DNA of 64,000 nucleotides, from the NCBI GenBank assembly GCA_036376245.1, contig DASVAS010000028.1, positions 29,339 to 93,338 on the forward strand. The letters are read 5' to 3'. This document shows positions 14,220 to 33,709 of this stretch, one piece after another. The notes beneath the pieces were generated by a model, which ran no database searches, had not been told where the DNA came from, and was given only the letters and a program-made list of their open reading frames with translations. Position 1 is the first letter of the stretch. Every line of letters begins with the position of its first letter. Source of the DNA: Thermoanaerobaculia bacterium. Lineage in GTDB: Bacteria > Acidobacteriota > Thermoanaerobaculia > Multivoradales > UBA5704. The position numbers and the translations under genes are program-made.

Positions 14220-14805
14220 GATCGAAGTCCAGGTTGAAGGGGTTGGCGACCACGGCGAGGCCGCCCGCCGCCAGGTGCTCGGCCAGAAGCTCGCGGGAGA
14301 TGCGTTCGCCGGGCGCGTCGAAGTTCTGGAACGGCTCGTCCAGCAGCAGGAGCCGGGGGGAGTGGAGGAGCGCCCAGGCCCATCGAAGACGCTGCCGCAT
14401 GCCGGAGGAGAGCGCGCCCGCCATGCGGTCGAGCGGCAGGCTCAGGCGGTCCAGCACGGCGAGCCCCTTCTCGGGGCTCACCCGCCGCAACCGGGCGAAG
14501 AAGGCCAGGTTCTCCGCCACCGTCAGCTCGGAGTAGAAGGCGAGGTCCGGGGCCACGACCCCGATCCGCCGTCGCCGGGCGGCGGCGTCCAGGTCGGCGC
14601 CGTTCTCGCGGTACGCGATCCTGCCGCCGTCCGGCGCCAGGAGCCCCGCGAGGCAGCGCAGCAGGGTGCTCTTGCCCGAGCCGTTGGGGCCGGTGACGAG
14701 CAGCATGCCGCCGGTCTCCACGGCGCCCGAGACGCCCTCCAGCACGGAGAGCCGCCCGAAGCGGCGGCGGACGTTTTCGAAGTGGAGGGAAGCGGGCTCG
14801 GACAT
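14191..14805 (-). CDS. ccmA: Heme exporter ABC ATPase CcmA.
   Basis: Walker A (GPNGSGKST), the ABC signature (LSSGMRQRL) and Walker B (LLLLDEP). It is the first gene of the minus-strand ccm operon. Confidence 0.85.
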
Positions 14806-14931
14806 GTGCGCAATATAACCGCGATTCCCGCGGGCCGCCCCCGCCCATGGGGTGGGGCGGGCTTTCCTGCCTGGGAGGCCGCCCGCCTTTCGGGCCTACC
14901 CGATGGAGTGGGCCGCTTCGTATACCATTCC

Positions 14932-16941
14932 ATGACCATGACCACGAAGACGCCGCGCCGCGGTCTCGCCGCCGTCCTCCTGCTCCTGCTGTGCGCCTGC
15001 GCGTCCCGCCCCCGCACCGCGGCGGACCTCCCGGACCTCCAGGTCCCCTCCCTGGAGGAGCGGACCCTGCTGGCGCTCCTGGTGGACCGGCAGATCCTCG
15101 ACGACTTCGCCGTCCAGCAGGCGCTCAAAGGGGACGCCTCCCTGCGCGAGGACCTCGCCGTGGCCCTGGGGCGCATCCCCGACCCGCGGGGGCGGACGGT
15201 GCTGGAAGGGCTGCTGATCGACGAGGAGCCGGCGGTGCGGCGGGCGGCGGCGTTCGGCCTGGGAGAGCTGGAAGCCCCGGAGGCCCAGGAGGCCCTCTTC
15301 CGCGCCCTGCGCGATTCCGACCGCGAGACCGGCATGCTGGCCGTCGAGGCCCTGGGCAAGCTGGGCGCCCGGGTGGTGGACGTGGCCGAGGCCCTGCTCC
15401 CGCTGCCGGAAGAGGAGCGCTGGGCGCGGCTGCTGCCCCACCTCTTCCGCTTCAAGGAGGAGACCGTCGTGGCCCTGGCCGAGCGCGGGCTGACCAATGC
15501 GGACGCGGCGCTGCGCCTGCGCGCCGCCTACGCCCTCTCCCGCAACCCCCTCGCCCAGGGCCTGCCGGCGCTGCGCCGGCTGCTGGCCGACCCCGAGCCG
15601 CGCCTCCGCGCCTGGGCCGCCCGCGCGGTCGGGCTGGTGGGGGAAGGGGCGGATCTGGCGGCCCTGCGGCCGCTGCTGGACGACGCCGATCCCGGGCCGC
15701 TGGTCCAGGCCCTCCGCTCCGCCCGATCCCTGGTGGCGGGGGGCAAGGCCCCGGCGCCGGCGGACTGGGCGCCCCGCCTCACGGCGCTGCTGGAAGACCC
15801 GCGCCCCGGCGTGCGCACCAGCGCCCTGGAGGCGGCGGGCGCCTGGTCGGCGGCCTCGCCGGAGCTCGCCGCGGTCCTGATCGCCCGGGCGTCAGGCGGC
15901 GAGACCTGGGAGCGGGGGACCGCGCTGGTCTCCCTGGCGCAGGGGAAGCACCCGCGGGCCGCGGAGCTGATCGCCGCCGCCGCGGACTCCCCGGACGAGA
16001 GCCTGCGGGCGCGGGCCGCCGAGGCCGCCGGCGCCCTGGGGCTGCCGGCGGGCGGCGCGCTGCTGGAGCGCCTGGCCGGCGACGCCGTCGCCCGGGTGCG
16101 GAGCGCCGCCCTGTCGGCGTGGCTCGCGGCCGACCCGCAAGCCGGCGAGGTGGCCCGCAAGGCCCTGACCGACCCCGACCCCGGCGTCAAGGGGGTGGCC
16201 CTCGGCTGGCTGGAGGAGCACCCGGTGGCGCCGCTGGCGGAGATCCAGGCGGCCCTGCCGGCGGTCTACCGGCAGGGGCTGGAGGAGGAGGGGATGACGG
16301 CCGTGCGGGCGGTCGCCGCCCGCGCCGAGGCCGAGCCGCTGGAGCGCGGCGCCGCCGTCGCGCTGCTGGAGAGCGCCGCCGCCGCCGGCCCCTACGTGCT
16401 GCGGCGGGAGGCGGGGGCGAGCCTCGGCAAGCTGGGCCGGCCCGTGCCGCCGCTGGGTCCGGCCGACAACGGCCGGGGGGCGGACGCCTACCGGGCGATC
16501 GTGCAGCGCACGCGCAAGCCGCGCACGGTGGAGATCCGCACCCAGAGGGGCGTGATCACCGCCCGCCTGGACTGCCCCCAGGCCCCCTTCACCTGCCTGA
16601 GCTTCCTCAACCTGGCGGGCCAGGGGTTCTACGACGGCCTGACCTTCCACCGGGTGGTCCCCGACTTCGTGATCCAGGGCGGAGACCCCAAGGGGGACGG
16701 CACCGGCGGGCCGGGCTACACGATCCGCGACGAGATCAATCGCCTGCGCTACGGCCGCGGCGTGCTGGGCATGGCCCTGGCCGGCCCGGACACCGGCGGC
16801 AGCCAGTTCTTCATCACCCTCTCCCCGCAGCCCCACCTGGACGGCGGCTACACCGTCTTCGGCGAGGTCGTCGCGGGGGACGAGGTCCTGGACCAGATCC
16901 GGATCGGCGACAAAATCGAGACCATTACCGAGGTGAAATAG
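14932..16941 (+). CDS. Exported lipoprotein that fuses a long HEAT (PBS-lyase-like) repeat array to a C-terminal cyclophilin-type peptidyl-prolyl isomerase domain.
   Basis: The ATG at 14932 sits inside the longer listed ORF. Lipoprotein signal LLLLLCAC. Repeated [14 protein letters not shown]-type HEAT units. C-terminal cyclophilin motifs [15 protein letters not shown] and [21 protein letters not shown]. It is divergent from ccmA. Confidence 0.75.
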
Positions 16942-16964
16942 GGAGGTGAGGTAGACTCCACCTC

Positions 16965-17531
16965 ATGAAACACCGAATCACCGTCCCCGCCGTCCTTGTC
17001 CTTGGTGTCCTTGCCGTCCTTGTCCCCGCCGCCCAGGCCGATGACGAGAAGGACAAGAAGAAGGAGGAGAGCGTGCTGACCGGTACCGTCACCCGGGAGG
17101 CCATCGAGGCCGCCAACCCCGAGTGGGCGCAGGCGCAGGTGGAGGCGAAGCCGGACGCCGCGGCGGCGCAGGGCCTGGCGCAGGTCGAGCCGGGCGCGGA
17201 GGTCACCGTCTTCCTCGGCACCTGGTGCGGCGACAGCCGGCGCGAGGTGCCCCGCCTCTGGAGCGCCATCGACGTGGCCGGCGGCATGGTCCCCTTCAAG
17301 GTGACCTACATCGCCGTGGACCGCGACAAGAAGGATCCGGCGGGAGAGGCGGTGAAGAGCGACATCCGGTACGTGCCCACCCTGATCGTGGTCCGCGACG
17401 GCCGCGAGGTGGGCCGCATCGTCGAGACGTCGCCGCACGGCGTCGAAGCCGACCTGCTGGCCCTCCTCACGGGGAAGGCCCAGGGCGTCATCTCCACCCG
17501 GGAGGACCTGGGCGGCGGCTCCTCCCGCTAG
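16965..17531 (+). CDS. Secreted thioredoxin-fold protein with a single-cysteine CxxS active-site variant (WCGDS).
   Basis: Signal peptide (VLVLGVLAVLVPAAQA). Thioredoxin-like core VTVFLGTWCGDSRREVPRLW ... YVPTLIVVRDGREVGRI, in which the second Cys of the canonical WCxxC is replaced by Ser. Confidence 0.65.
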   Translation: MKHRITVPAVLVLGVLAVLVPAAQADDEKDKKKEESVLTGTVTREAIEAANPEWAQAQVEAKPDAAAAQGLAQVEPGAEVTVFLGTWCGDSRREVPRLWSAIDVAGGMVPFKVTYIAVDRDKKDPAGEAVKSDIRYVPTLIVVRDGREVGRIVETSPHGVEADLLALLTGKAQGVISTREDLGGGSSR

Positions 17532-17579
17532 GTCCAGGTCATACCCTGAAACTTTGATCCTGGGGCTGCGTATCCACCC

Positions 17580-18164
17580 ATGACGCGGGGAGCGGAGCCA
17601 TTGACCGACGAGGATCTGGTGACCGCGGTCCTCGAAGGCGATCGGGACCGCTTCGGCGAGCTGATCGACCGCTATCAGGGACGCCTCGTCAACTATCTGT
17701 TCCGGTTGCTGCGCAACGCTGACGACGCGCACGACCTGGCGCAGGAGGTCTTTGTCAAGGTGTATCAGGTCCTGGATCGTTTCGATCCGCACTACAAGTT
17801 CTCCACCTGGCTGTTCCGGGTGGCCCAGAACGCGGCGATCGATCAGATCCGCAGGCGCCGTCTGAAGGTGGTCTCGCTCCGGCAGGAGGACGACGAGGGG
17901 GAGAGCCGGGACTGGGACCTGCCCTCTCCGGAGCGGGGACCCTATGGCGAGATGCGCAACCAGGAGCGGGGGGAGGCGATCCATGAGGCGATCGAGACCC
18001 TGCCCTGGGAGTACCGGGAGCTGATCCTGCTGCGCCATTTCGGCGAGCTGCCCTACGAGGAGATCGCGCGGCTGAAGCAGATGCCGCTGGGGACCGTGAA
18101 GAACAAGCTTTTCCGGGGACGCCAGATGCTCAAGGAGAAGCTCCAGGACTTTCTCAGCGATTGA
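17580..18164 (+). CDS. ECF-family RNA polymerase sigma-70 factor.
   Basis: Region 2 (LVNYLFRLLRNADDAHDLAQEVFVKVYQ, FSTWLFRVAQNAAID) and a region 4 helix-turn-helix (LPWEYRELILLRHFGELPYEEIARLKQMPLGTVKNKLFRGR). Confidence 0.85.
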   Translation: MTRGAEPLTDEDLVTAVLEGDRDRFGELIDRYQGRLVNYLFRLLRNADDAHDLAQEVFVKVYQVLDRFDPHYKFSTWLFRVAQNAAIDQIRRRRLKVVSLRQEDDEGESRDWDLPSPERGPYGEMRNQERGEAIHEAIETLPWEYRELILLRHFGELPYEEIARLKQMPLGTVKNKLFRGRQMLKEKLQDFLSD

Positions 18165-18186
18165 AAAAGGGTTCGGGGGAGAGGTC

Positions 18187-18765
18187 ATGAACAGGCCCGA
18201 TCACAGCACCTACATCGAATGGTTGAACCTGGACGCCGACGGCCTGCTGGAAGGTGAGGAGCGGTCGCGCCTGGAAGAGCACCTGGCGGCCTGCGCCGAC
18301 TGCCGGCGCGAGCGGGAGGAGCTTCAGGCCCTGAACGGGCTGCTGCGGCGCTCCGCCATCGACGCGCGGCCGGGTTTCCGGCAGGCGGTCATGGCGTCTC
18401 TCCCCACGGCGGGCTGGGAGGTCCACTCTTCCCAGGGCTGGCGCTTCCCCGCGGCGGTGCTGGTGCTGCTGGGCGCTCTCGCGGCCGGCCTGCTGATCGC
18501 CGGCTCGGCCCCGTCCTCCGCCGGTTTCTCCACCCTGGTCGCCGTGGGCAGCCTCTTCCGCGCCGCTGTCCTGGCCGGGGCCGGCCTGCTCGCCGCCTCC
18601 TGGAAGGGGGTGGGCCTGGTCGTCGAGCGGGTGATCTCCTCGCCCGCCAGCCTGGGCGCTTTCGGCTTCCTGGTGCTCTGCCTCAACCTGCTGCTGATCT
18701 CGCTGCTCCGCCGCAAGCGCCCGGCCCGCCAGGCCGAGGGCGCGCCCTCCGATCCCAGACGGTGA
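18187..18765 (+). CDS. Membrane-anchored anti-sigma factor with an N-terminal zinc-finger (ZAS-like H-x3-C-x2-C) domain.
   Basis: EEHLAACADCRRE motif, then hydrophobic transmembrane segments. It lies 22 nt after the sigma gene and overlaps the next gene by 4 nt. Confidence 0.65.
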   Translation: MNRPDHSTYIEWLNLDADGLLEGEERSRLEEHLAACADCRREREELQALNGLLRRSAIDARPGFRQAVMASLPTAGWEVHSSQGWRFPAAVLVLLGALAAGLLIAGSAPSSAGFSTLVAVGSLFRAAVLAGAGLLAASWKGVGLVVERVISSPASLGAFGFLVLCLNLLLISLLRRKRPARQAEGAPSDPRR

Positions 18766-19649
18766 AGCTCTTCCTCTGCGCGACGCTGCTGTCCCTGCTC
18801 GCCCTGCCGGCGGGAGCCGGCGACGAGCCTGCGCTCCGCCTGGAGCCGGGGAGCACCACGCAACAGCTCGTGGGCGTGGGGCGGGACGTCATCGTCGACG
18901 GCGAGGTGCTGACCGACGTCGCGGCCCTGGACGGCTCGGTGGACGTCTCCGGCCACGTGAACGGGGACGTCGTGGTGCTGCGGGGCGACGCGCGGCTGGC
19001 CGCCACGGCCCGCGTCGACGGCGACGTCTTCGTGGTCGGTGGCACGGTGCGCACCCACGGCGGCGCCAAGGTCGGCGGGCGCATGGTCTCCTATCCCACC
19101 GCCTCCAGCGCCTGGCTCACCCTCCTGGAGGGGCCGAGCATCGGCCTCGGCTTCGCCTCCCGGCTGGTGCTGGGGACCAAGCTGGCCCTGGTCGCCGCCT
19201 GGGCGGCCCTCCTGCTCCTGTTCTTCGCCGCCAGCGGCCGGCAGGTGGTGGAGACCGCCGACGGCGTGCGGCGCGAGCCCTTCCGCAGCTTCTTCGTGGG
19301 CCTCACCGGCATCGTCTGCCTGGTCCTCACCGGCCTCTTCTTCAGCGCCTTCGCCCGCGGGGTGATCGGCGTGCCGCTGCTGGTGCTGGTGGTCCTGCTG
19401 GCCCTGGTGCTGAAGCTGTGGGGCATGGTCGCCGTCTTCTACGCCCTGGGCGAATGGATCTCCCGCAAGGTCCTGCGGCGCCGCTTCCGGCCCCTGAACG
19501 CGGCCACCCTCGGTCTGCTGGTGCTGGGGGCCGTGAAGTTCCTCCCCTGGTTCGGCGTCCTGGCCTGGACCACCGCCACGCTGATCGGCGTCGGCGCCGC
19601 CCTCTCCACCAAATTCGGCCGCCGCGAGCCCTGGTTCGAGCTGGCGTAG
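18762..19649 (+). CDS. Signal-peptide protein with a beta-helix, bactofilin-like repeat domain (DGxVxxDVxxxxGSVDVSGHVNGDVVV...) and a C-terminal 4-transmembrane domain. It is the third gene of the sigma/anti-sigma module.
   Basis: N-terminal signal LLSLLALPAGAG. A repeating G-D-V/x-V pattern characteristic of polymer-forming beta-helix (DUF583/DUF4097-like) proteins. Several C-terminal hydrophobic helices. Confidence 0.55.
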   Translation: MKLFLCATLLSLLALPAGAGDEPALRLEPGSTTQQLVGVGRDVIVDGEVLTDVAALDGSVDVSGHVNGDVVVLRGDARLAATARVDGDVFVVGGTVRTHGGAKVGGRMVSYPTASSAWLTLLEGPSIGLGFASRLVLGTKLALVAAWAALLLLFFAASGRQVVETADGVRREPFRSFFVGLTGIVCLVLTGLFFSAFARGVIGVPLLVLVVLLALVLKLWGMVAVFYALGEWISRKVLRRRFRPLNAATLGLLVLGAVKFLPWFGVLAWTTATLIGVGAALSTKFGRREPWFELA

Positions 19650-19712
19650 AACCCTATTCGCGAAATCTGATAAGTTACGCGCCAGAAACCTCCGTTCGAG
19701 GGAGTCACTGGC

Positions 19713-22700
19713 ATGCGCTCCGCGGTTGGGAGAGTCGCGCTTCTCCTGTTCGTCTCCGGCTTCTGCGCCCTGGTCTACCAGACGGCGTGGCTCCGCCTGT
19801 TCCGTCTGATCTTCGGCGCCTCCACGGCGGCCTCCGCCGCGGTGCTGGCCATCTTCATGGCCGGCCTGGGGCTGGGCGGCCTGCTGCTGGGCAAGCGGGC
19901 CGACCGCCACCCCTCGCCGCTGGGCCTCTACGCCCTGCTGGAGGCGGGCATCGCCGTCAGCGCCGGCCTGTCGCCCTGGCTGGTCGAGCTGGTGGAATGG
20001 ATCTACATCTCGCTCGGCGGCAGCGCCGCGCTGGGACTGACCGGCAGCACCCTGGTGCGGCTGCTGCTCTCCGTCCTGGTGCTCGGGCTGCCGACCTTCC
20101 TGATGGGCGGCACGCTGCCGGCCGTGGCGCGGGCGGTGGAGCGCTCGACGGACGCCGGCCGGCGGACCGTGGGCCTGCTCTACGCCGTCAACACCCTCGG
20201 GGCCGTGCTGGGGGTGATGCTCACCTCCTTCTTCGCCCTCGAGACGCTGGGGATCCGCAAGTCGGTGTGGATCGCGGCGCTGCTCAACCTGATCGTGGTG
20301 CTGGCCGCCCGCAGCCTGGCGCGCGAAATGACAGCCCGCCCGGAGGCGCCGGCCGCTCCGGAGGCCGCCCCCGAGCCGGACGGGGAGTCGCGGATCGGCT
20401 GGCTGGTGCCGCTGGCGGCCGGCGTGGTGGGCTTCGCCTTCCTGCTCATGGAGCTGGTCTGGTACCGCATGCTGGCGCCGCTGCTGGGCGGTTCCTCCTA
20501 CACCTTCGGGCTGATCCTGGCGGTGGCTCTGCTGGGGATCGGCGCCGGCGGCCTGCTCTACGGCGCGGGCGAGGCCCGGCGGCGGCCCACCATGCTCTCG
20601 TTCGCTGCCACCTGCTCTCTCGAAGCCCTGTTCATGGCCCTCCCCTTCGCCCTGGGCGACCGGGTGGCGGTGCTGGCCGCCCTGCTGCGGCCGCTGGGCA
20701 CCGCGGGCTTCCCGGCCCTGGTGGGGGCCTGGACGGCGATCACGGCCCTGGTGGTGCTGCCGGCGGCGATCGTGGCCGGCTACCAGTTCCCGCTGCTGAT
20801 CGCCCTGCTGGGCGAGGGGCGCCGCCGGGTGGGCCGGGAGGTGGGGGTGACCTACGCGGCCAACACCCTGGGGGCCATCCTGGGCTCCATCGCCGGCGGC
20901 TTCGGGCTGATCCCGCTGCTGACCGCGCCGGGCGTCTGGCGGCTGGTGACGGCCCTGCTGCTCGCTCTGGCGGCGCTGACGATCCTGGCCGGGCTGCGCG
21001 CCGGCGCGCAGCGCCGGGCCGCCCTGACGCCGCTGGCGGCGGGCGTCCTCGGCCTCCTCTTCTGCCTCTCCACGGGTCCCACCGCCTTCTGGCGGCATTC
21101 CCCGATCGGCGCCGGCCGCATGCCGACCGCCCACTGGACCGGGCCGAACGAGATCCGCAGCCAGGTCGACCAGAAGAGCCTGCGCACCGTCTGGGAGGCG
21201 GACGGGGTGGAGAGCAGCGTCGCCCTCGACCTCTCGGTCGAGTACGCCTTCATGATCAACGGCAAGTCCGACGGCAGCACGCTGGGGGACTCCCCCACCC
21301 AGGTGATGAGCGGCCTGGTGGCGGCGGCGCTGCACCCGAATCCGAAGCGGGTGCTGGTCATCGGCCTGGGCACGGGGAGCACGGCCGGCTGGCTCGCCCG
21401 CATCCCGTCCGTGGAGCGGGTGGACGTGGTGGAACTGGAGCCGGTCATCGAGCACGTGTCGCGCGTCCTCTCCAAGATCAACCTGGACGTGCTCTCCAAT
21501 CCCAAGGTCCGCCTCTACGAGGGGGACGGCCGGGAGTTCCTGCTCACCACGCGCGAGCGCTACGACATCATCTTCTCCGAGCCTTCGAACCCCTACCGGG
21601 CGGGGGTGGCGAGCCTGTTCAGCCAGGACTTCTACCGCGCCGCCATCGGGCGGCTGCAATCGGGCGGCATCTTCCTCCAGTGGCTGCAGGGCTACGAGGT
21701 GGACGCCCAGATGCTGCGCACGGCCTACGCCACGCTGACCTCGGTCTTCCCGACGGTCGAGAGCTGGCACGTCCATTACGCGGACACCCTGCTGATCGCC
21801 ACTCCCGAGCCCCTGGTCCATGACTTCGACCGCGTGCGGCGGCGCATGGCCCAGGAGCCGTACCGCACCGCCCTGGCCCGCACCTGGGGAGTCGACGGCG
21901 CCGAGGGTCTCTACGCCGGCTTCCTGGCCGCCCCCTCCTTCATCCGCGACGTGGCCGAGGCCGCGGGGGACAGCGTCAACACCGACGACCGCCCGATCCT
22001 GGAGTTCGGCTTCGCCAGGAACCTGGGCCGGCCGGGGCTGATCGACCTGTACGACGTGGCCAACCTGGTGAAGGCGCGCGGGGAGGACCGTCCGGCGGGC
22101 CGCGGCGCGCCCCTGGACTGGGGCCGGGTGGGAGAGATGCAGGTGGCGATCTCCGCCTACGAGGAGGAGATCTACCCCGATCCCGACCCGCGCGGCGACC
22201 GCGCGGCGCGGCTGCGCATCGCCGCCCGCCACGCCTGGGTGCGCGAGGACTTCCAGCGCGCCTGCGGCTACTGGTTCCGGCAGCCGCAGCCGCCCACCGC
22301 CCACGCCGACGTGCTGCTGGTGGCCGAGTGCCTCGCCGCGGCGGCGGACGCCCGCCTGCCGCAGGCCGCCGCCTGGCTCGCCCGCGAGCAACCCATCGAG
22401 GCCCAGATGGTCTTGGCCCGCTGGCACATGGCGTCCGGCCGGCCGCGGGAAGCGGCCGAGAGCCTGCTGACGGCTCTCCGCGGCTATCAGAATGACCCCT
22501 GGGTCTACCGCCCCCTGGTTCGGCGGACCCTCCCCATGGTCATCGACCTGGCGCGGTGGGACCGCGCCGTGGGGCTGCGGCTCTTCGAGACCCTGTCGCG
22601 GCCGTTCTCCACCGACATGTTCCACCACCAGCGGCTCCTCAACCGCATCTGGCTCGCCCGCGAGCTGGGCTCGCCGCGGCTGTGCGCCGAAGCCCTGGCC

Positions 22701-22856
22701 GCGTTCGAGCCCCACGTGCCGTGGGAGGAGCAGGTCCTGACCTTCCGCTACGAGTGCTACCAGGCGGCGAAGAGCCCGCTGTTGGACCGGGCGCGGGAGG
22801 ACCTGGAGGCCTACCGCGCCGCCGCGCCGCCCGCCATGACGATGGCGAGCCGATAG
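19713..22856 (+). CDS. Fused MFS-type membrane domain and spermidine-synthase-like domain protein, paralog 1 of 3 (1047 aa), with a divergent C-terminal helical domain.
   Basis: The N-terminal roughly 450 aa are polytopic. The middle is an aminopropyltransferase-like fold (VLVIGLGTGSTAGWLARIPSVERVDVVELEP..., EGDGREFL, YDIIFSEPSNPYRAGVASLFSQDFY). The C-terminal roughly 300 aa are helical. The protein is near-identical at the N-terminus to the two downstream copies. Confidence 0.8.
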   Translation: MRSAVGRVALLLFVSGFCALVYQTAWLRLFRLIFGASTAASAAVLAIFMAGLGLGGLLLGKRADRHPSPLGLYALLEAGIAVSAGLSPWLVELVEWIYISLGGSAALGLTGSTLVRLLLSVLVLGLPTFLMGGTLPAVARAVERSTDAGRRTVGLLYAVNTLGAVLGVMLTSFFALETLGIRKSVWIAALLNLIVVLAARSLAREMTARPEAPAAPEAAPEPDGESRIGWLVPLAAGVVGFAFLLMELVWYRMLAPLLGGSSYTFGLILAVALLGIGAGGLLYGAGEARRRPTMLSFAATCSLEALFMALPFALGDRVAVLAALLRPLGTAGFPALVGAWTAITALVVLPAAIVAGYQFPLLIALLGEGRRRVGREVGVTYAANTLGAILGSIAGGFGLIPLLTAPGVWRLVTALLLALAALTILAGLRAGAQRRAALTPLAAGVLGLLFCLSTGPTAFWRHSPIGAGRMPTAHWTGPNEIRSQVDQKSLRTVWEADGVESSVALDLSVEYAFMINGKSDGSTLGDSPTQVMSGLVAAALHPNPKRVLVIGLGTGSTAGWLARIPSVERVDVVELEPVIEHVSRVLSKINLDVLSNPKVRLYEGDGREFLLTTRERYDIIFSEPSNPYRAGVASLFSQDFYRAAIGRLQSGGIFLQWLQGYEVDAQMLRTAYATLTSVFPTVESWHVHYADTLLIATPEPLVHDFDRVRRRMAQEPYRTALARTWGVDGAEGLYAGFLAAPSFIRDVAEAAGDSVNTDDRPILEFGFARNLGRPGLIDLYDVANLVKARGEDRPAGRGAPLDWGRVGEMQVAISAYEEEIYPDPDPRGDRAARLRIAARHAWVREDFQRACGYWFRQPQPPTAHADVLLVAECLAAAADARLPQAAAWLAREQPIEAQMVLARWHMASGRPREAAESLLTALRGYQNDPWVYRPLVRRTLPMVIDLARWDRAVGLRLFETLSRPFSTDMFHHQRLLNRIWLARELGSPRLCAEALAAFEPHVPWEEQVLTFRYECYQAAKSPLLDRAREDLEAYRAAAPPAMTMASR

Positions 22857-22871
22857 GAGGAGCCTGAAGGG

Positions 22872-25800
22872 ATGCGTTCGGCCGTCGCGAGAGTCGCCCT
22901 CCTGCTGTTCGTCTCCGGTTTCTGCGCCCTGGTCTACCAGACGGCGTGGCTGCGGCTTTTCCGGCTGATCTTCGGCGCGTCCACCGCGGCCTCGGCCGCG
23001 GTGCTGGCCATCTTCATGGCCGGCCTGGGATTCGGCGGCCTGCTGCTGGGCAAGCGGGCCGACCGCCACCGCTCGCCGCTTGGCCTGTACGCCACGCTGG
23101 AGGCGGGTATCGCCATCTCGGCCGGCCTGTCGCCCTGGCTGGTGAAGCTGGTGGAATGGGTCTACATCTCGCTCGGCGGCAGCGCCGCGCTGGGGCTGGC
23201 CGGGAGCACCCTGGTGCGGCTGCTGCTCTCCGTCCTGGTGCTGGGAGTGCCGACCTTCCTGATGGGCGGCACGCTGCCGGCGGTGGCGCGGGCGGTCGAG
23301 CGCTCGACGGACGCCGGCCGGCGGACCGTGGGCCTGCTCTACGCCGTCAACACCCTGGGCGCGGTGCTGGGCGTGCTGCTGACCACCTTCTTCGCCATCG
23401 AGGAGCTGGGGGTCCGCAAGACGGTCTGGATCTCGGCGCTGCTCAACCTGCTGGTGGTGCTGGCGGCGCGGAGCCTGGCCCGGCGGCTGGGAGAGGGGCG
23501 GACGGAAGAAGCCGCGGTGGAGGAGGAGGCTCCCGGAGCGGAGTCCCGGATCGGCTGGCTGGCGCCGTTCGCGGCCGGGCTGGTGGGCTTCGCCTTCCTG
23601 CTGATGGAGCTGGTCTGGTACCGCATGCTGGCGCCGCTGCTGGGCGGCTCGGTCTACACCTTCGGCCTGATCCTGGCCGTGGCCCTGCTGGGGATCGGCC
23701 TCGGCGGCCTGCTCTACGGCGCCGGCGAGGCCCGGCGGCGGCCCGCCATGCTCTCCTTCGCCGCCACCTGCGCGCTGGAAGCCCTGTTCATGGCCCTTCC
23801 CTTCGCCCTGGGCGACCGGGTGGCGGTGATGGCAGCTCTGCTGCGCCCCCTCGGGGTCTACGGCTTCGCCTCCCTGGTGGGAGCCTGGTCGGCGATCACC
23901 GCCCTGGTGGTGCTGCCGGCGGCGATCGTCGCCGGCTACCAGTTCCCGCTGCTGATCGCCCTGCTGGGCGAGGGGCGCCGCCGGGTGGGCCGCGAGGTGG
24001 GGATCACCTACGCGGCCAACACCCTGGGGGCCATCCTGGGCTCCATCGCCGGCGGCTTCGGCTTGATCCCGCTGCTGACCGCGCCGGGCGTCTGGCGGCT
24101 GGTCGCGGCGCTGCTCCTGGGGCTCGCGGCGGTGACGACCGTGGTGGGCCTGCGGGCGGGGGCCCCGCGCCGGGCCGCCCTGGTCCCTGTGATGGCGGGC
24201 GTCCTGGGGGTCGTCTTCTGCCTCGCCACCGGCCCCACGGCCTTCTGGCGGCACTCGCCCATCGGCGCCGGCCGGGTGGAGACCGCGAAGTGGACGGGGC
24301 CGAACGACGTGCGGCGGAACATCGAGGACCTGCGGCGCCGCGTCGTCTGGGAGGCCGACGGCGTGGAGAGCAGCGTCGCCCTCGACCTCACCATGGAGTA
24401 CGCCTTCATCGTCAACGGCAAGGCCGACGGCAGCACCCTGGGGGATTCGCCGACCCAGGTGATGAGCGGCCTGGTGGGCGCGGCGCTGCATCCGAATCCG
24501 AAGCGGGTGCTGGTCATCGGCCTGGGGACGGGGAGCACGGCGGGCTGGCTCGCCCGCATCCCCTCCATCGAGCGGGTGGACGTGGTGGAGCTGGAGCCCG
24601 CCATCGAGCACGTGGCCAAGGTCCTCTCCAAGGTCAATCTGGACGTGCTCTCCAATCCCAAGGTCCACCGCTACGACGGCGACGGCCGGGAGTTCCTGCT
24701 GACCACGCGCGAGACCTACGACGTCATCTTCTCCGAGCCGTCCAACCCCTACCGGGCGGGGATCGCGAGCCTGTTCAGCCAGGACTTCTACCGGGCGGCC
24801 GTGGGCCGGCTGCGGCCGGGGGGCATCTTCCTCCAGTGGCTGCAGGGCTACGAGATGGACGCCCACATGCTGCGCACGGCCTACGCCACGCTGACCTCCG
24901 TCTTCCCGGCGGTCGAGAGCTGGCAGATCCACTACTCCGACCTGCTGCTGATCGCCACCGTCGAGCCCCTGGCGCACGACTTCGACCGCGTGCGGGCGCG
25001 GATGGCCGGCGAGCCCTACCGCACCGCCCTGGCCCGCACCTGGGGGGTGGCGGACGCCGAGGGCTTCTACGCCGGCTACCTGGCCGCGCCGTCCTTCGCG
25101 CGGGCGGTGAGCGAGGCCGGGGGGGACGACGTCGTCAACACCGACGACCGCCCCGTGCTCGAGTTCGGCTTCGCCAAGAGCCTGGGCCGGCTGGGTCTGT
25201 TCGACGTCGCCAACCTCCTGGACCTGGTGAAGGCGCGCGGGGAGCACCGCCCGGCGGGCCGGGGGGCGCCCCTGGACTGGGCCAGGGTGGGAGAGATGCA
25301 GGTCGCCATCTCCGCCTATGCCGAGGAGGTCTTCCCCGATCCGGACCCGCGGGGGGACCGCGGAGCGCGGCTGCGCATCGCCGCCCGCCACGCCGCGGCC
25401 CGCGACCAGCTCCGGGAGGCCTGCGGCCACTGGCTCGCCCAGCCCGAGCCCCCCCGTGTCCACGGCGACCTGCTGCTGGTGGCCGAGTGTCTGGCCGACG
25501 CCGCCCACCCCCGCCTGCCGCAGGCCGCGGCCTGGCTGGCCCGCGAGCAACCCATCGAGGCCGAGATGGTCCTGGCCCGCTGGCACGCCGCCGCCGGCCG
25601 TCCGAAGGAGGCGACCGATCACCTGGTGGCGGCGTTCCAGGCCTACCGGTCGGACCCCTGGGTCTACCGTCCCCTGGTCCGGCGGACCCTGCCGTTGGCC
25701 ATCGATCTGGCGCGGGGGGACCGCGCCCTGGGCGCGCGGCTCTACGACGGGCTGTCGCGGCCGTTTTCCACCGACATGCTGGAGCAGCTCCGCCGGCTGG

Positions 25801-26018
25801 TCCGCCTCTGGGTGGCCCGCGAGCTGGGCGAGCCCCGGCTGTGCGCCGAGGCCCTCGCCTCCCTGGAGCCCCACCCGCCGTGGGATGAGCAGGTCCTGGA
25901 GTTCCGGTACGAGTGCTACCAGGCGGCGGGGAGCCCGCTCGCGGACCGGGCGCGGCAGGCCCTGGAGGCGTTCCGGGCCGCCGCGCCGCCCGTCCTGAAA
26001 GCCGATCTGGCGAAGTAG
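22872..26018 (+). CDS. Fused MFS/spermidine-synthase-like protein, paralog 2 of 3 (1048 aa).
   Basis: It starts 15 nt after paralog 1, preceded by a GGAGG ribosome-binding site. It has the same architecture and roughly 85-90% nucleotide identity to copy 1 over the 5' half. Confidence 0.8.
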   Translation: MRSAVARVALLLFVSGFCALVYQTAWLRLFRLIFGASTAASAAVLAIFMAGLGFGGLLLGKRADRHRSPLGLYATLEAGIAISAGLSPWLVKLVEWVYISLGGSAALGLAGSTLVRLLLSVLVLGVPTFLMGGTLPAVARAVERSTDAGRRTVGLLYAVNTLGAVLGVLLTTFFAIEELGVRKTVWISALLNLLVVLAARSLARRLGEGRTEEAAVEEEAPGAESRIGWLAPFAAGLVGFAFLLMELVWYRMLAPLLGGSVYTFGLILAVALLGIGLGGLLYGAGEARRRPAMLSFAATCALEALFMALPFALGDRVAVMAALLRPLGVYGFASLVGAWSAITALVVLPAAIVAGYQFPLLIALLGEGRRRVGREVGITYAANTLGAILGSIAGGFGLIPLLTAPGVWRLVAALLLGLAAVTTVVGLRAGAPRRAALVPVMAGVLGVVFCLATGPTAFWRHSPIGAGRVETAKWTGPNDVRRNIEDLRRRVVWEADGVESSVALDLTMEYAFIVNGKADGSTLGDSPTQVMSGLVGAALHPNPKRVLVIGLGTGSTAGWLARIPSIERVDVVELEPAIEHVAKVLSKVNLDVLSNPKVHRYDGDGREFLLTTRETYDVIFSEPSNPYRAGIASLFSQDFYRAAVGRLRPGGIFLQWLQGYEMDAHMLRTAYATLTSVFPAVESWQIHYSDLLLIATVEPLAHDFDRVRARMAGEPYRTALARTWGVADAEGFYAGYLAAPSFARAVSEAGGDDVVNTDDRPVLEFGFAKSLGRLGLFDVANLLDLVKARGEHRPAGRGAPLDWARVGEMQVAISAYAEEVFPDPDPRGDRGARLRIAARHAAARDQLREACGHWLAQPEPPRVHGDLLLVAECLADAAHPRLPQAAAWLAREQPIEAEMVLARWHAAAGRPKEATDHLVAAFQAYRSDPWVYRPLVRRTLPLAIDLARGDRALGARLYDGLSRPFSTDMLEQLRRLVRLWVARELGEPRLCAEALASLEPHPPWDEQVLEFRYECYQAAGSPLADRARQALEAFRAAAPPVLKADLAK

Positions 26019-26031
26019 GAGTCATCGAAAA

Positions 26032-29000
26032 ATGCGTTCAGCGGTCGCAAGGGTCGCCCTTCTTCTCTTCGTCTCCGGCTTCTGCGCCCTGGTCTACCAG
26101 ACGGCGTGGCTCCGGCTGTTCCGCCTGGTCTTCGGCGCTTCAACCGCGGCCTCGGCCGCGGTGCTGGCCATCTTCATGGCCGGCCTGGGGTTCGGCGGCC
26201 TGCTGCTGGGCAAGCGGGCCGACCGCCACCGCTCGCCGCTGGGCCTGTACGCCGCGCTGGAGGCGGGCATCGCCATCAGCGCCGGCCTCTCGCCCTGGCT
26301 GGTGAAGCTGGTGGAATGGGTCTACATCTCGCTCGGCGGCAGCGCCGCGTTGGGGCTGGCCGGGAGCACCGTGGTGCGGCTGCTGCTCTCCACCCTGGTG
26401 CTGGGAGTCCCGACCTTCCTGATGGGGGGCACGCTGCCGGCCGTGGCGCGGGCCGTGGAGCGCGGCACCGACGCCGGCCGGCGGACCGTGGGCCTGCTCT
26501 ACGCCGTCAACACCCTGGGCGCGGTGCTGGGCGTCGGGCTGACCTCCTTCTTCGCCCTGGAGATGCTGGGCATCCGCAAGACGGTCTGGATCGCGGCGCT
26601 GCTCAACCTGCTGGTGGTGCTGGCGGCGCGCAGCCTGGCCCGGAGCCTCGCGGCGGAGAGGTCCGCCGAGGAAGCCGCGGAGGAGGCTGTGGAAGAGGGG
26701 GAGCGGTCGCGAATCGGCTGGCTGGTGCCGCTGGCGGCGGGGATCGTGGGCTTCGCCTTCCTGCTGATGGAGCTGGTCTGGTACCGCATGCTGGCGCCGC
26801 TCCTGGGCGGCTCCTCCTACACCTTCGGCCTGATCCTGGCCGTGGCCCTGCTGGGCATCGGCGTCGGCGGCCTGCTCTACGGCGCGGGGGAGGCGCGGCG
26901 GCGGCCGACGATGCTCTCCTTCGCCGCCACCTGCTCCCTGGAAGCCCTGTTCATGATCGTCCCCTTCGCCCTGGGGGACCGGCTGGCGGTGGCGGCCGCC
27001 CTCCTGCGGCCGATCGGCGGCGCCGGCTTCCCCGCCCTGGTGGGGGTCTGGACGCTGATCACGGCGCTGGTGGTGCTGCCGGCGGCGATCGTGGCCGGCT
27101 ACCAGTTCCCGCTCCTCATCGGCCTGCTGGGCCAGGGGCGCCGCCAGGTGGGCCGGGAGGTGGGGGTGACCTACGCCGCCAACACCCTGGGGGCCATCCT
27201 GGGCTCGATCGCCGGCGGCTTCGGCCTGCTGCCGCTGCTGACCGCGCCCGGGGTCTGGCGCCTGGTGGCGATCCTGCTCCTGGGGCTCGCGGCCGTGGCC
27301 GTGCTGGCCGGGTTGCGGGCCGGGGCCCCGCGCCGGGCGGTCCTGGTGCCCGCGGCGGCGGGCGTCCTGGGGCTCCTCCTCTGCTTCGCCACCGGGCCCT
27401 CGGCCTTCTGGCGGCATTCCCCCATCGGCGCCGGCCGGGTGGAGACCGCCAAGTGGACCGGGCCGAACGACATCCATGACCAGGTCTCGCAGATGCGCCA
27501 GCGCGTGACCTGGGAGGCGGAAGGGGTGGAAAGCAGCGTCGCCCTCGACCTGACGATGGAGTACTCGCTGATCGTCAACGGCAAGTCCGACGGCACCGCC
27601 ACCGCCGACGCGCCGACGCAGGTCCTCAGCGGTCTGATCGGCAGCATGGTCCACCCGAATCCCCGCCGCATCCTGGTCATCGGCCTGGGGACGGGGAGCA
27701 CGGCGGGCTGGCTCGCCCAGGTGCCGTCCGTCGAGCGGGTGGACGTGGTGGAGCTGGAGCCGGCCATCGCCCACGTGGGCCGCGTCCTCGCCAAGGTCAA
27801 CCTGGACGTAATGTCCAACCCCAAGGTCCACTTCTACGCCGGCGACGGCCGCGAGCTCCTCCTTGCCAAGGGGGATTCCTACGACCTGATCTTCTCCGAG
27901 CCCTCGAACCCCTACCGGGCCGGCGTCGCCAGCCTCTACAGCCAGGACTTCTACCGCGCCGCCCTGCGCCGCCTGCGGCCGGGCGGCCTCTTCCTCCAGT
28001 GGCTCCAGGGCTATGAGACCGACTTCCAGGTGGTGCGCACCGTCTACGCCACCCTGGGGTCGGTCTTCCCGGCGGTGGAGAGCTGGCAGACCCACCGGGT
28101 GGACCTGATGCTGATGGCGAGCCGCGAGCCGGTGGCGCACGACGTCTCCCTCGTGCGGAAACGGGCGGCCATGGAGCCCTACCGCACGGCCCTCTCCCGC
28201 ATCTGGGGGGTGGCGGGCGCCGAGGGCTTCTACTCCGCCTACGTGGCCCGGCCCTCCTTCGCGCGGGCCGTGGCCGACGCCGAGGGCTCCGCCGTCAACA
28301 CCGACGACCGCCCGATCCTGGAGTTCGGCTACGCCAAGAACCTCGGCCGCTTCAACATGTTCCAGCCCGCCGACCTCCACGCCCTGGCGAAGTCGCGGCG
28401 GGAGAACCGGCCGGCGACCCGCGGCGAGCCGCTCGACTGGGCGCGCGTCGAGGAGGCGCGGGTGGCGCGGGCGGCCTGGTGGGGAGAGTCCCTGGAGGCT
28501 GCCGACCCACAGGGCGACCCGGACGCGCGGCATCGGATCTCCGCGCGGCAGGCGTTCGTGGACGACCGCCTGCCGCAGGCCTGCGCCGCCTGGTTCCGGC
28601 AGCCGGAGCCGCCCCGGTTCCACGTCGACAAGATGCTGGTCAGCCTGTGCCTCGCCGCAGCCGGCCATCCCCGCGCTCCGGAGTACGCCGCCCTGCTGGC
28701 CGGGGAACAGCCCATCGAGGCCGACCTGGTGCTCGCCCAGTGGCACGCCGCCGCGGGCCGGCCGGCGGCAGCCGGCGAGCACCTCCTGAAGGCGTTCGAG
28801 GGATTCCGCCGCGACCCCTGGATCTTCCGCCCTCTCGTCCAGCGGGTGCTGCCCGCCACGGTCACCCTCGCGCGGCGCGATCCGGCCCTCGGCGAGCGGC
28901 TCCTCCGTTCCCTCGACCAGCCGTTCGCCGTCCGCATGTTCGACCGCCAGCGGCTGATCACGCGCATCTGGCTGACCCAGGGGCTGAGCGCGCCGGAGCT

Positions 29001-29193
29001 CTGCGCCCGGGCCATCGCCCCGTTCGAGCCGCACTCCCCCTGGGAGGAGAGCTTCCTGCGCTACCGCCACGAGTGCTACCGCAAGCTGCGGCACCCGCTG
29101 GAGGCCAGGGCGCGGCGCGACCTGGAAGACTTCCTGGAGCACACTCCCCCCAGGCTCGCGGAGGGCCTGGAGCCGGCGCGGCCCTCTTCTTGA
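26032..29193 (+). CDS. Fused MFS/spermidine-synthase-like protein, paralog 3 of 3 (1053 aa), which has the most divergent C-terminal domain.
   Basis: It starts 13 nt after paralog 2. The N-terminal and aminopropyltransferase-like core are conserved (IFSEPSNPYRAGVASLYSQDFY). The C-terminal 300 aa have diverged. Confidence 0.8.
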   Translation: MRSAVARVALLLFVSGFCALVYQTAWLRLFRLVFGASTAASAAVLAIFMAGLGFGGLLLGKRADRHRSPLGLYAALEAGIAISAGLSPWLVKLVEWVYISLGGSAALGLAGSTVVRLLLSTLVLGVPTFLMGGTLPAVARAVERGTDAGRRTVGLLYAVNTLGAVLGVGLTSFFALEMLGIRKTVWIAALLNLLVVLAARSLARSLAAERSAEEAAEEAVEEGERSRIGWLVPLAAGIVGFAFLLMELVWYRMLAPLLGGSSYTFGLILAVALLGIGVGGLLYGAGEARRRPTMLSFAATCSLEALFMIVPFALGDRLAVAAALLRPIGGAGFPALVGVWTLITALVVLPAAIVAGYQFPLLIGLLGQGRRQVGREVGVTYAANTLGAILGSIAGGFGLLPLLTAPGVWRLVAILLLGLAAVAVLAGLRAGAPRRAVLVPAAAGVLGLLLCFATGPSAFWRHSPIGAGRVETAKWTGPNDIHDQVSQMRQRVTWEAEGVESSVALDLTMEYSLIVNGKSDGTATADAPTQVLSGLIGSMVHPNPRRILVIGLGTGSTAGWLAQVPSVERVDVVELEPAIAHVGRVLAKVNLDVMSNPKVHFYAGDGRELLLAKGDSYDLIFSEPSNPYRAGVASLYSQDFYRAALRRLRPGGLFLQWLQGYETDFQVVRTVYATLGSVFPAVESWQTHRVDLMLMASREPVAHDVSLVRKRAAMEPYRTALSRIWGVAGAEGFYSAYVARPSFARAVADAEGSAVNTDDRPILEFGYAKNLGRFNMFQPADLHALAKSRRENRPATRGEPLDWARVEEARVARAAWWGESLEAADPQGDPDARHRISARQAFVDDRLPQACAAWFRQPEPPRFHVDKMLVSLCLAAAGHPRAPEYAALLAGEQPIEADLVLAQWHAAAGRPAAAGEHLLKAFEGFRRDPWIFRPLVQRVLPATVTLARRDPALGERLLRSLDQPFAVRMFDRQRLITRIWLTQGLSAPELCARAIAPFEPHSPWEESFLRYRHECYRKLRHPLEARARRDLEDFLEHTPPRLAEGLEPARPSS

Positions 29194-29259
29194 CCCTCCG
29201 TCTTTGATCCCGTACGCTCCCGTTTCGCCCGATCCAGGGCGGTTGGGAGGGGTTTATAG

Positions 29260-30120
<861 letters not shown>

Positions 30121-30139
30121 GGGAGAGAACACAGAGCCC

Positions 30140-32002: not shown

Positions 32003-33709
<1,707 letters not shown>

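Follow-up and report, generated by a model that had tools for sequence, protein, structure and literature searches.

A tandem triplet of fused MFS/aminopropyltransferase-fold proteins with replaced active-site residues, adjoining an ECF sigma module and possibly acting as periplasm-facing methyltransferases

The open reading frames of the locus are co-directional and encode, in order, an ECF sigma factor, a zinc-finger anti-sigma factor, a 295-aa membrane protein and three large paralogs, A, B and C. The following features were located in the window (the whole 64-kb stretch of DNA analysed):

17548..17572, + strand: GAAAC-N16-CGTA, a motif resembling an ECF promoter of the sigmaW type; the -10 element ends 8 nt upstream of the sigma ATG
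17580..18164, + strand: ECF sigma factor, 194 aa (Pfam Sigma70_r2, Sigma70_r4_2; TIGR02937)
18187..18765, + strand: membrane anti-sigma factor, 192 aa, with N-terminal zf-HC2 (H-x3-C-x2-C; Pfam zf-HC2)
18762..19649, + strand: 295-aa protein with signal peptide, bactofilin-like repeats and C-terminal membrane helices, as read from the translation
19666..19676, + strand: TCTGnTAnnnT box, extended -10-like, a putative promoter within the 63-nt spacer before paralog A
19713..22856, + strand: paralog A, 1047 aa (NF037959, 122 bits, cut-off 40)
19713..21080, + strand: paralog A residues 1-456, 12-helix MFS domain and 13th transmembrane helix (434-451)
21150..21992, + strand: paralog A residues 480-760, aminopropyltransferase-fold (SpdS-like) domain with GLGTGS, E574, D605 and SEPSNPYRAG
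22035..22853, + strand: paralog A residues 775-1047, TPR-like alpha-solenoid with covarying Cys pairs 851/873 and 991/1015
22872..26018, + strand: paralog B, 1048 aa, with the three-domain layout of A
26032..29193, + strand: paralog C, 1053 aa, with the layout of A; its SpdS-like and TPR-like domains are the most divergent

A preliminary description of this DNA had placed three head-to-tail paralogs of about 1050 aa, with spacers of 13-15 nt, directly downstream of an ECF sigma/anti-sigma pair and in the same direction. The open reading frames lie exactly there (spacers of 15 nt between A and B and 13 nt between B and C), and Pfam and NCBIfam matches agree on the pair. An assembly artefact can be dismissed as the source of the triplication: DNA identity between the copies is 79-85% (15-21% difference), and a second long contig (L001/L002), assembled independently from another metagenome, has orthologs of all three, 91-95% identical. 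With dN/dS values of 0.14-0.49 for the ortholog pairs, purifying selection acts on all three paralogs.

The sigma factor, 81-98% identical among related loci, scored 115 bits with TIGR02937 (cut-off 42.9). The module resembles those of the SigW/RsiW type in three respects: SigW is the top equivalog of the sigma factor, the anti-sigma carries an H-x3-C-x2-C zinc motif (HLAACADC in the translation; zf-HC2 at 35.2 bits, Pfam cut-off 22.2), and the promoter-like motif upstream of the sigma gene reads TGAAAC-N16-CGTA, which we take to match the B. subtilis sigmaW consensus. It differs in that the SigW score of 155 bits lies under the equivalog cut-off of 209, in that the anti-sigma, which has several membrane helices, nearly lacks an extracytoplasmic domain, and in the presence of a third co-conserved gene. 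This gene, whose first 4 nt overlap the end of the anti-sigma gene, accompanies the sigma/anti-sigma pair in 30 loci. Its 295-aa product had been called a beta-helix membrane protein; the membrane helices are there at the C-terminus, but for the "beta-helix" part there is only a sub-threshold Bactofilin match (18.9 bits, Pfam cut-off 27.9), and searches of NCBIfam and the PDB with this protein gave no match.

The paralogs had also been described as being under ECF control, which overstates the link. The GAAAC-N16-CGTA motif has a single match in the window, upstream of the sigma gene. Of 27 related loci, 18 retain it 32 nt ahead of the sigma start (40 nt in L007), and the sequence of its spacer varies among them. 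Paralog A is preceded by its own extended -10-like box, which also occurs once in the window; of the 11 related loci aligned, 10 keep it in the orthologous spacer. The ECF module adjoins the paralogs in 27/79 loci, all from Thermoanaerobaculia/Holophagales, and was absent when looked for next to the approximately 50%-identical orthologs of Myxococcota and Binatia. Among the neighbourhoods compared, no partner or substrate gene is conserved near the paralogs outside the ECF block. The tie to the ECF module is a conserved gene order in one acidobacterial clade and regulation is putative: the paralogs may be read through from an autoregulated sigma promoter, and a promoter-like box of their own is also present.

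Profile searches and the AlphaFold2 model of paralog A (pLDDT 88.7, pTM 0.87) agree with the proposed fusion of a polytopic domain, a spermidine-synthase fold and a helical C-terminal domain. Pfam Spermine_synth was matched at residues 536-683 of all three paralogs (E 1e-13 to 1e-17). The structures nearest to the membrane domain are the amine/cation antiporters VMAT2, VAChT and NorA, and its helices contain the invariant acidic residues E77, E177, E247, E304 and D316. Identity between paralogs is 87% in the MFS domain and 67-82% in the SpdS-like domain; the expression "nearly identical", previously used for both, therefore applies to the membrane part alone, where gene conversion of the 5' portion of the genes has probably maintained the similarity. 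The C-terminal domains have indeed diverged from one another, with the lowest identity (51-71%) on an otherwise shared engine.

Alignment with the T. maritima spermidine synthase (1INL) confirmed that GLGTGS and SEPSNP stand in all three copies where GGGDGG and DSTDP are found in the enzyme. The dcSAM-recognising Asp (D101) is replaced by T554, the two catalytic Asp residues D170 and D173 by E623 and N626, and the catalytic Tyr (Y76) by T529, the last assignment being extrapolated three residues past the printed alignment. The ribose-binding Glu (E121) is retained as E574, and D605, the adenine-binding Asp, aligns with N152, a position occupied by Asp in most spermidine synthases. The Gly-loop and the ribose and adenine contacts of a class I SAM enzyme are thus kept. 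Scores against the aminopropyltransferase equivalogs were far under the cut-offs (TIGR00417, 53-70 vs 249.55; PRK00811, 75-92 vs 260; PRK03612, 99-104 vs 472); together with the four replaced dcSAM/catalytic residues, this bears out the earlier statement that the paralogs are not canonical spermidine synthases. The mapped residues are conserved in 74-76 of 76 full-length homologs from Acidobacteriota, Myxococcota, Binatia and Gemmatimonadota (Thr for the dcSAM-binding Asp in 75), and GLGTG and SEPSNP occur together in 29/38 full-length 50%-cluster representatives. Such near-invariance of the replacement residues argues for a working site and not for decay.

The paralogs belong to a large, catalogued bacterial family, NF037959 ("fused MFS/spermidine synthase"; 114-123 bits, cut-off 40), with more than 4,500 homologs. 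The altered motifs are not peculiar to this locus; they are the conserved signature of that family. A 100%-identical protein bears the family name at NCBI, and other sources give "spermidine synthase" or "predicted membrane-bound spermidine synthase"; no characterised bacterial member was found.

The orientation of the proteins was assessed by the positive-inside rule and the MFS paradigm. The model of paralog A has 13 helices. The predicted cytoplasmic loops have a K+R sum of 19.9, compared with 6.8 for the opposite ones, a GKRADR resembling motif A separates helices 2 and 3, and a half-size relative (P0142) has 8 arginines in the loop preceding its last helix. Of the 76 homologs, 38 have both Cys851 and Cys873, 37 have neither and 1 has one of them, and Cys991 and Cys1015 occur together in 68; this co-occurrence could also reflect a single clade-level gain and not a disulfide. 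From the loop charges, the odd helix count and the covarying Cys pairs, the last 590 residues are predicted to be periplasmic; two arginines within 15 residues following helix 13 run counter to this placement.

The closest characterised relative is fungal NHMT (Aspergillus nidulans AN4663), which consists of seven transmembrane helices and a SpdS-like domain (Batth et al. 2023, Nat Commun 14:4202, PMC10349129). NHMT is an ER-resident SAM methyltransferase that methylates the N-terminal His of secreted proteins and requires its membrane domain; the acidic residue of its Gly-loop is replaced by Ile322, and E340A abolishes activity (PMC10349129). For comparisons its sequence was rebuilt from Supplementary Note 3 of that article. 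Its best NCBIfam model is NF037959 (61.5 bits, cut-off 40), above all aminopropyltransferase models. In hhalign, the SpdS-like profile of the paralog family matched NHMT with a probability of 93.9%, and the membrane domains had no detectable homology (probability 0.2%). In the alignment of the two, I322 falls on T554 and E340 on E574.

Tentatively, and with somewhat less than even confidence, we favour the view that each paralog combines an MFS transporter, an extracytoplasmic SAM methyltransferase-like domain and a target-binding TPR-like domain. The 12-helix MFS domain would reside in the inner membrane and the 13th helix would take the chain to the periplasmic side, where the SpdS-fold domain and then the TPR-like solenoid would be located. 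The former would transfer methyl groups in the manner of NHMT, and the latter would pick the target, most likely an exported protein or peptide. The MFS domain may move cofactor or substrate across the membrane; that it exports SAM is speculation. Triplication would then have produced three enzymes that share a conserved engine and differ in the domain for target recognition. We know of no bacterial periplasmic SAM-dependent enzyme, and a literature search for one found none. The suggestion of an undescribed envelope-modification system survives in part: an envelope role is plausible and strengthened by the predicted periplasmic position, but the family was already catalogued.

The loss of the canonical catalytic residues, and a predicted site without a known SAM or dcSAM pool, would also suit a functional transporter, for example an amine or cation:proton antiporter, whose SpdS-fold and TPR-like parts form a pseudoenzyme or sensor for ligand binding, gating or partner binding. 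The antiporters among the nearest structures, the invariant membrane-helix acids, the adjoining envelope-stress sigma system and the half-size relatives, which retain the C-terminal domain despite clearly degenerate motifs, are in line with this explanation. We consider it unlikely. An alkyl (aminopropyl or aminocarboxypropyl) transferase acting on an envelope lipid or glycan, with the MFS domain flipping the lipid-linked acceptor or the donor, seems to us improbable. The domain is nearest in sequence to true aminopropyltransferases, nearer than to METTL13, the only solved SpdS-like protein methyltransferase (family profile against the PDB: thermospermine synthase, E 1e-20; METTL13, E 9e-5), which is equally a counterpoint to the methyltransferase reading. 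Glu623 could still serve as base, and the predicted periplasmic position and the neighbouring sigma factor would fit. However, the residue replaced by Thr is the very Asp responsible for binding the aminopropyl amine of dcSAM, and putrescine N-methyltransferase has a change of the same kind. Proteins or peptides are the usual ligands of TPR-like domains, and the neighbourhoods compared have no conserved genes for lipid or glycan biosynthesis. NHMT, with Ile322 at the equivalent acidic position, is a SAM methyltransferase (PMC10349129); since this closest characterised relative modifies proteins, it points to methyl transfer onto exported proteins and away from the aminopropyl or alkyl transfer to lipid or glycan first proposed. 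Least credible, and very improbable, is that the database annotation is correct and that the paralogs are polyamine aminopropyltransferases bound to the membrane, their catalytic domain lying in the cytoplasm: the Spermine_synth match, the source names and the fold agree with it, but the equivalog scores, the replacement of D101, D170, D173 and Y76, the predicted topology and the absence of conserved polyamine pathway genes in the neighbourhoods compared all speak against it.

Compared with polyamine aminopropyltransferases (SpeE and thermospermine synthase; 1INL/1JQ3, T. thermophilus 1UIR, Medicago TSPS 6BQ2), the paralogs have GLGTGS for GGGDGG, SEPSNP for D(S/T)(S/T)DP and Thr for the catalytic Tyr; they add invariant K518 and R629, and their domain is fused to a membrane domain and predicted to be periplasmic. 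They share with NF037959 the order of membrane and SpdS-like domains. Its model spans 480 positions, about half an MFS and the fold domain, whereas the paralogs carry two copies of the membrane half, giving a full 12-helix MFS, and a TPR-like domain of about 270 aa outside the model; the family name implies spermidine synthesis, which their residues do not support. The putative plant Golgi SAM transporters GoSAMT1/2, studied as MFS members (10.1101/2021.07.06.451061), are MFS-fold proteins proposed to carry cytosolic SAM into a non-cytosolic compartment, feeding methyltransferases. Being separate eukaryotic polypeptides, they serve here as precedent solely for the proposed cofactor supply. The C-terminal SpdS-like domain of human METTL13 (5WCJ), the first non-aminopropyltransferase PDB match of the family profile, methylates the N-terminus of eEF1A with SAM and is cited by the NHMT authors as the closest human analogue of NHMT (PMC10349129); unlike the paralogs, METTL13 is soluble and cytosolic, lacks membrane and TPR-like domains and is weakly similar in sequence. 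NHMT itself differs in its seven helices, whose fold its authors call unique (PMC10349129), in the lack of a TPR-like domain, in its eukaryotic, ER-resident nature and in its post-beta4 motif (HDVFTG for SEPSNP), and identity to the paralogs is only about 28% over 126-145 residues. It nevertheless shares with them a multi-helix membrane domain followed by a SpdS-like Rossmann domain on the non-cytosolic side (predicted for the paralogs), a replaced Gly-loop acidic residue (Ile322 and Thr554), a retained SAM-binding Glu (E340 and E574) and an automatic annotation as spermidine synthase.

The genes for paralogs A, B and C lie in tandem on the plus strand, in a window of about 70% GC, directly downstream of an ECF sigma/anti-sigma module. 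The features of the locus are the following:

about 10074-17531: upstream block, syntenic in 15-27 related loci
within about 10074-17531, minus strand: ccm cytochrome c maturation genes, assigned by orthology to L001, a locus of an independently assembled close relative
frame of 14125-16941: HEAT-repeat cyclophilin-type PPIase
16965-17531: thioredoxin-like protein with a signal peptide and a WCGDS motif
17548-17572, plus strand: ECF promoter-like motif GAAAC-N16-CGTA, the sole match in the window
17580-18164, plus strand: ECF sigma factor (ORF, HMM)
18187-18765, plus strand: zf-HC2 anti-sigma factor (ORF, HMM)
18762-19649, plus strand: 295-aa membrane protein, whose start overlaps the anti-sigma stop
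19666-19676, plus strand: conserved TCTGnTAnnnT box, extended -10-like, in the spacer that precedes paralog A, some 40 nt ahead of its ATG
19713-22856, plus strand: paralog A, separated from the 295-aa gene by a 63-nt spacer
22872-26018, plus strand: paralog B, 15 nt after A
26032-29193, plus strand: paralog C, 13 nt after B
29260-30120, plus strand: 3-hydroxyacyl-CoA dehydrogenase, downstream of the paralogs
30140-31984, plus strand: zinc-ribbon and multi-TPR protein
32003-33709, plus strand: prolyl-tRNA synthetase

A Shine-Dalgarno-like sequence precedes each of the three paralog genes. An NCBI protein with 100% identity to paralog A already bears the name 'fused MFS/spermidine synthase'. 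The tandem triplication noticed in the preliminary description is real, and the observation as a whole was confirmed. The copies share 79-85% identity at the DNA level (15-21% of positions differ) and 72-82% at the protein level, and the same six genes are present on a 694-kb contig of an independent assembly (L001/L002), where A, B and C each have an ortholog with 91-95% identity. The dN/dS ratio of each copy relative to its ortholog on this contig ranges from 0.14 to 0.49, indicating that all three copies are maintained. The extent of the DNA differences, the three genes on an independent contig and the purifying selection acting on the orthologs together rule out an assembly artefact. A 3-hydroxyacyl-CoA dehydrogenase gene is also found immediately downstream of the three copies in L001. 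When paralog A was used as the query of a translated search, the window gave matches to the three plus strand genes and to nothing else. A 2516-aa reading frame on the minus strand (18324-25874), opposite the genes for the anti-sigma factor, the 295-aa protein, A and B, is of the long, spurious type that a GC content of 70% leads one to expect.

The AlphaFold2 model of paralog A (pLDDT 88.7, pTM 0.87) shows a membrane domain of 6 + 6 + 1 helices fused upstream of a spermidine synthase-fold (SpdS-like) domain and a helical C-terminal domain. By fold search the first twelve helices, arranged in two six-helix halves, belong to the MFS; helix 13 (residues 434-451) is hydrophobic. The MFS identity was detected by fold search only: the scores for Pfam MFS_1 (21.8-30.9 bits) did not reach the gathering score of 33.4, and the membrane-domain profile had no match among PDB sequences. 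The C-terminal domain adopts the helical-hairpin solenoid fold of TPR-like proteins, with Pfam TPR models below cut-off (TPR_7, 21.3 vs 27.9; TPR_14, 17.7 vs 23.5). It occurs in 1,052 representative clusters at 50% identity; all full-length representatives listed, as well as the fragments, have it at their C-terminal end.

The N-terminus and loops 2/3, 4/5, 6/7, 8/9, 10/11 and 12/13 are cytoplasmic in every known MFS protein. In the family alignment, the sum of Lys and Arg residues in these segments is 19.9, vs 6.8 on the opposite side, and loop 2/3 (GKRADR) resembles MFS motif A. With 13 helices and this distribution of charges, helix 13 would take the chain outward, and the SpdS-like and TPR-like domains, i.e. 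the last 590 residues, are predicted to be periplasmic. The distribution of cysteines is consistent with this placement. The C-terminal domains of A, B and C contain exactly four cysteines, on adjacent helices; among 76 full-length homologs, Cys851 and Cys873 occur together in 38 and are both missing from 37, the remaining one having a single cysteine of this pair, and Cys991 and Cys1015 occur together in 68. Four half-size relatives of about 740-770 aa (P0142, P0167, P0177 and P0182) have seven helices and the same C-terminal TPR-like domain, and P0142 carries eight arginines in the loop before its last helix. The SpdS-like motifs of these relatives are degenerate (e.g. GLGDG, no SEPSNP); the proteins could form a subfamily of their own or act as non-catalytic partners.

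The active site of the SpdS-like domain was compared with that of the Thermotoga maritima spermidine synthase (1INL). Thr554 aligns to the dcSAM-specific Asp101, and Asp170 and Asp173, involved in catalysis and amine binding, correspond to Glu623 and Asn626; the catalytic Tyr76 corresponds to Thr529 when the alignment is extrapolated three residues past its printed end. The ribose-binding Glu121 is retained as Glu574, and Asp605 occupies the adenine-binding position. Throughout the 76 homologs, down to 47% identity, these replaced and retained positions and the residues around them show no or almost no variation (at position 554, 75 homologs have Thr and one has Ser). The homologs span Acidobacteriota, Myxococcota, Binatia and Gemmatimonadota, and include the cultured Myxococcota Myxococcus dinghuensis, Citreicoccus inhibens and Minicystis rosea. 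They share the motifs NGKxDG, D526, T529-Q530, GLGTGSTAGW, VELEP, GDG and SEPSNPYRAG, and both GLGTG and SEPSNP are present in 29 of 38 more distant full-length representatives. The GLGTGS and SEPSNP replacements had thus been read correctly in the preliminary description; they are a signature of the family and not a peculiarity of this locus.

The proposal that the active site is non-canonical was borne out both by the alignment, in which the Gly-loop acidic residue, both aspartates and the tyrosine are replaced, and by HMM searches. Scores for the aminopropyltransferase equivalogs were far below cut-off (TIGR00417, 53-70 vs 249.55; PRK00811, 75-92 vs 260; PRK03612, 99-104 vs 472), and NF037959, 'fused MFS/spermidine synthase', with a cut-off of 40 bits, was exceeded by A (122.3), B (123.5) and C (114.0). 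The family is catalogued yet uncharacterised in bacteria, under a name that misdescribes its proteins; literature searches on the family name, on membrane-bound or transmembrane spermidine-synthase-like proteins of bacteria and on spermidine synthase in Myxococcus xanthus returned nothing relevant.

The three domains have diverged to different extents. Identity is 87% in every pair for the membrane domain, 67-82% for the middle SpdS-like domain and 51-71% for the C-terminal domain. In the part coding for the membrane domain (19713-21080, 22872-24240 and 26032-27400) dS is flat, at 0.24-0.29 for all pairs, and it is higher in the part coding for the C-terminal domain (0.37, 0.53 and 0.68 across pairs), these values being rough given the strong GC3 bias. 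In neighbour-joining trees of the domains, built without support values, A, B and C cluster together for the membrane domain only and the trees disagree. Combined, the low and uniform dS and the discordant trees suggest that gene conversion has acted on the 5' halves of the three copies. In other genomes, L015 (6775-13129) has two full copies in tandem, and in L054 (6869-13087) a full copy follows one that is split or frameshifted; these independent duplications indicate that tandem expansion is recurrent in the family.

The sigma factor comprises sigma-70 regions 2 and 4 only, as ECF factors do, and scores above the cut-off of TIGR02937; its best match is SigW, yet under the equivalog cut-off. 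The anti-sigma factor belongs to the ZAS group (zf-HC2, 35.2 bits vs 22.2), with the H-x3-C-x2-C motif present as HLAACADC. The 295-aa protein scored 18.9 bits against Pfam Bactofilin (cut-off 27.9) and had no PDB match. As base 17547 is a T, the promoter-like motif reads TGAAAC-N16-CGTA, which matches the Bacillus subtilis sigmaW consensus. Of 27 related loci, 18 have the GAAAC-N16-CGTA motif at 32 nt ahead of the sigma start (40 nt for the related locus L007); the sequence of the N16 spacer varies between them. This conservation makes it a good footprint of a putative autoregulated promoter. Its -10 element ends 8 nt before the sigma ATG, with the same geometry in the 18 loci, so that the sigma mRNA would be leaderless or nearly so.

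The preliminary description had placed the paralogs under ECF control. Adjacency stands, and read-through from the module is possible since no terminator was predicted between the genes. On the other side, the motif was seen upstream of the sigma gene only, and no second ECF promoter was found ahead of the paralogs in the window or in the related loci; the paralogs are preceded by a -10-like box of their own; and the module is absent from distant family members. The TCTGnTAnnnT box could act as an extended -10 promoter in its own right or as an operator. The spacer carrying it (19650-19712) is AT-rich in a 70% GC genome, and a GAGGGAG ribosome-binding site follows the box. No credible Rfam match to a riboswitch, such as a SAM riboswitch, was found in the leaders (16800-30300).

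Of 79 loci, 27 have the sigma/anti-sigma/295-aa module ahead of the giant gene. These 27 come from Thermoanaerobaculia, Holophagales or unclassified Acidobacteriota, their giant protein shares about 60% identity or more with A, and with few exceptions they carry a single copy. The gap between module and giant is below 250 nt in 18 of 26 loci, and 0.6-5 kb are inserted in the other eight. The conserved block extends further upstream to the thioredoxin-like protein, the HEAT-repeat cyclophilin and the ccm genes, and looks like clade-level synteny; its genes all have envelope or periplasmic folding functions. Orthologs of about 50% identity in Myxococcota, Binatia and others have neither the module nor any other conserved neighbour, and at about 50 distant orthologs no conserved partner gene was found beyond clade-level synteny. 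ECF control of the three paralogs is thus possible but unproven, and does not extend to the family as a whole. Like the ECF adjacency, the tandem triplication is lineage-specific.

Starting from the three folds and the conserved residue replacements established here, we tentatively favour a mechanism in which the SpdS-fold domain would be a SAM-dependent methyltransferase, of the kind of METTL13-C and of the fungal N-terminal histidine methyltransferase (NHMT) of Aspergillus nidulans. The MFS domain would carry cofactor or substrate across the membrane, the TPR-like domain would pick a protein or peptide target, and the three paralogs would differ mainly in target selection. Taken as a whole, this reading has in our view somewhat less than an even chance. 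A far more specific version, which we find improbable as it stands, is that the MFS domain exports SAM from the cytoplasm to its own fused periplasmic NHMT-like domain, which methylates N-termini or side chains of exported envelope proteins. The TPR-like domain would choose these proteins, each of the three paralogs would serve its own set of targets, and the system would be induced with an envelope-stress ECF regulon.

The tight conservation of the altered motifs speaks for a functional site whose chemistry differs, and against decay. That the proteins are transporters with a non-catalytic periplasmic binding module we regard as unlikely. The interpretation in the preliminary description is supported in part; alkyl transfer to a lipid or glycan, as proposed there, appears rather improbable to us. 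As to the function given by the database name, the replaced residues, the HMM cut-offs and the predicted topology rule out a canonical spermidine synthase, and we consider true polyamine synthesis very improbable indeed. Part of the probability goes to none of these readings.

Thousands of proteins from Acidobacteriota, Myxococcota, Binatia and Gemmatimonadota are named 'spermidine synthase' or 'fused MFS/spermidine synthase', a name that misleads on their chemistry and probably on their compartment. If they are periplasm-facing methyltransferases, the methylation of exported proteins or of other envelope molecules outside the cytoplasm, and the route taken by SAM, would become questions in a field largely blank in bacteria; NHMT, of biotechnological interest for LPMO production, would gain a large set of bacterial relatives for its catalytic domain. 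Should the SAM-exporting machine prove true, the bacterial periplasm would have its first demonstrated system of SAM-dependent protein methylation. The tandem copies, alike in their homogenised engine and diverging in the domain for recognition, amount to a natural experiment on target specificity.

The closest characterised relative is the fungal NHMT. This A. nidulans protein (AN4663), automatically annotated as a spermidine synthase, has seven transmembrane helices followed by a SpdS-like domain (Batth et al. 2023, Nat Commun, PMC10349129; bioRxiv 10.1101/2022.10.03.510680). It methylates the N-terminal histidine of secreted LPMOs with SAM as methyl donor, is ER-resident, requires its membrane domain and has Ile322 in place of the Gly-loop acidic residue; the E340A mutant was made to serve as catalytically dead enzyme. 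We rebuilt the 558-aa sequence from Supplementary Note 3 by correcting 13 OCR-damaged 10-nt blocks, which left no stop codon; the block of codons 321-324 was corrected by hand to GLGIG, in line with the published Ile322. NF037959 was the best NCBIfam model for the rebuilt NHMT (61.5 bits vs a cut-off of 40, with canonical aminopropyltransferase models at about 34 bits), as it was for the window proteins. The SpdS-like profile of the window family matched NHMT with an hhalign probability of 93.9%, Ile322 aligning with Thr554 and Glu340 with Glu574. Both are thus SpdS-like domains that lack the Gly-loop acidic residue and keep the SAM-binding Glu. The first match of the family profile in the PDB outside the aminopropyltransferases was METTL13 (E 9e-5), a SpdS-like N-terminal methyltransferase of eEF1A.

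The two systems differ in other respects. The membrane domain of NHMT has seven helices, whereas the window proteins have a 12-helix MFS domain and one further helix, and no homology of the membrane domain to NHMT residues 1-222 was detected (hhalign probability 0.2%). The motif following beta4 is HDVFTG in NHMT and SEPSNP here. A non-cytosolic catalytic domain like that of NHMT is in our case a prediction from the 13 helices, the loop charges, the cysteine pairs and the arginine-rich loop of P0142. For cofactor supply by an MFS protein, a precedent is offered by putative plant Golgi SAM transporters, studied as MFS members (10.1101/2021.07.06.451061). Among membrane-integral SpdS-like methyltransferases, a full MFS domain joined to an NHMT-like SpdS fold, predicted to face outward, and to a TPR-like domain would be a new combination.
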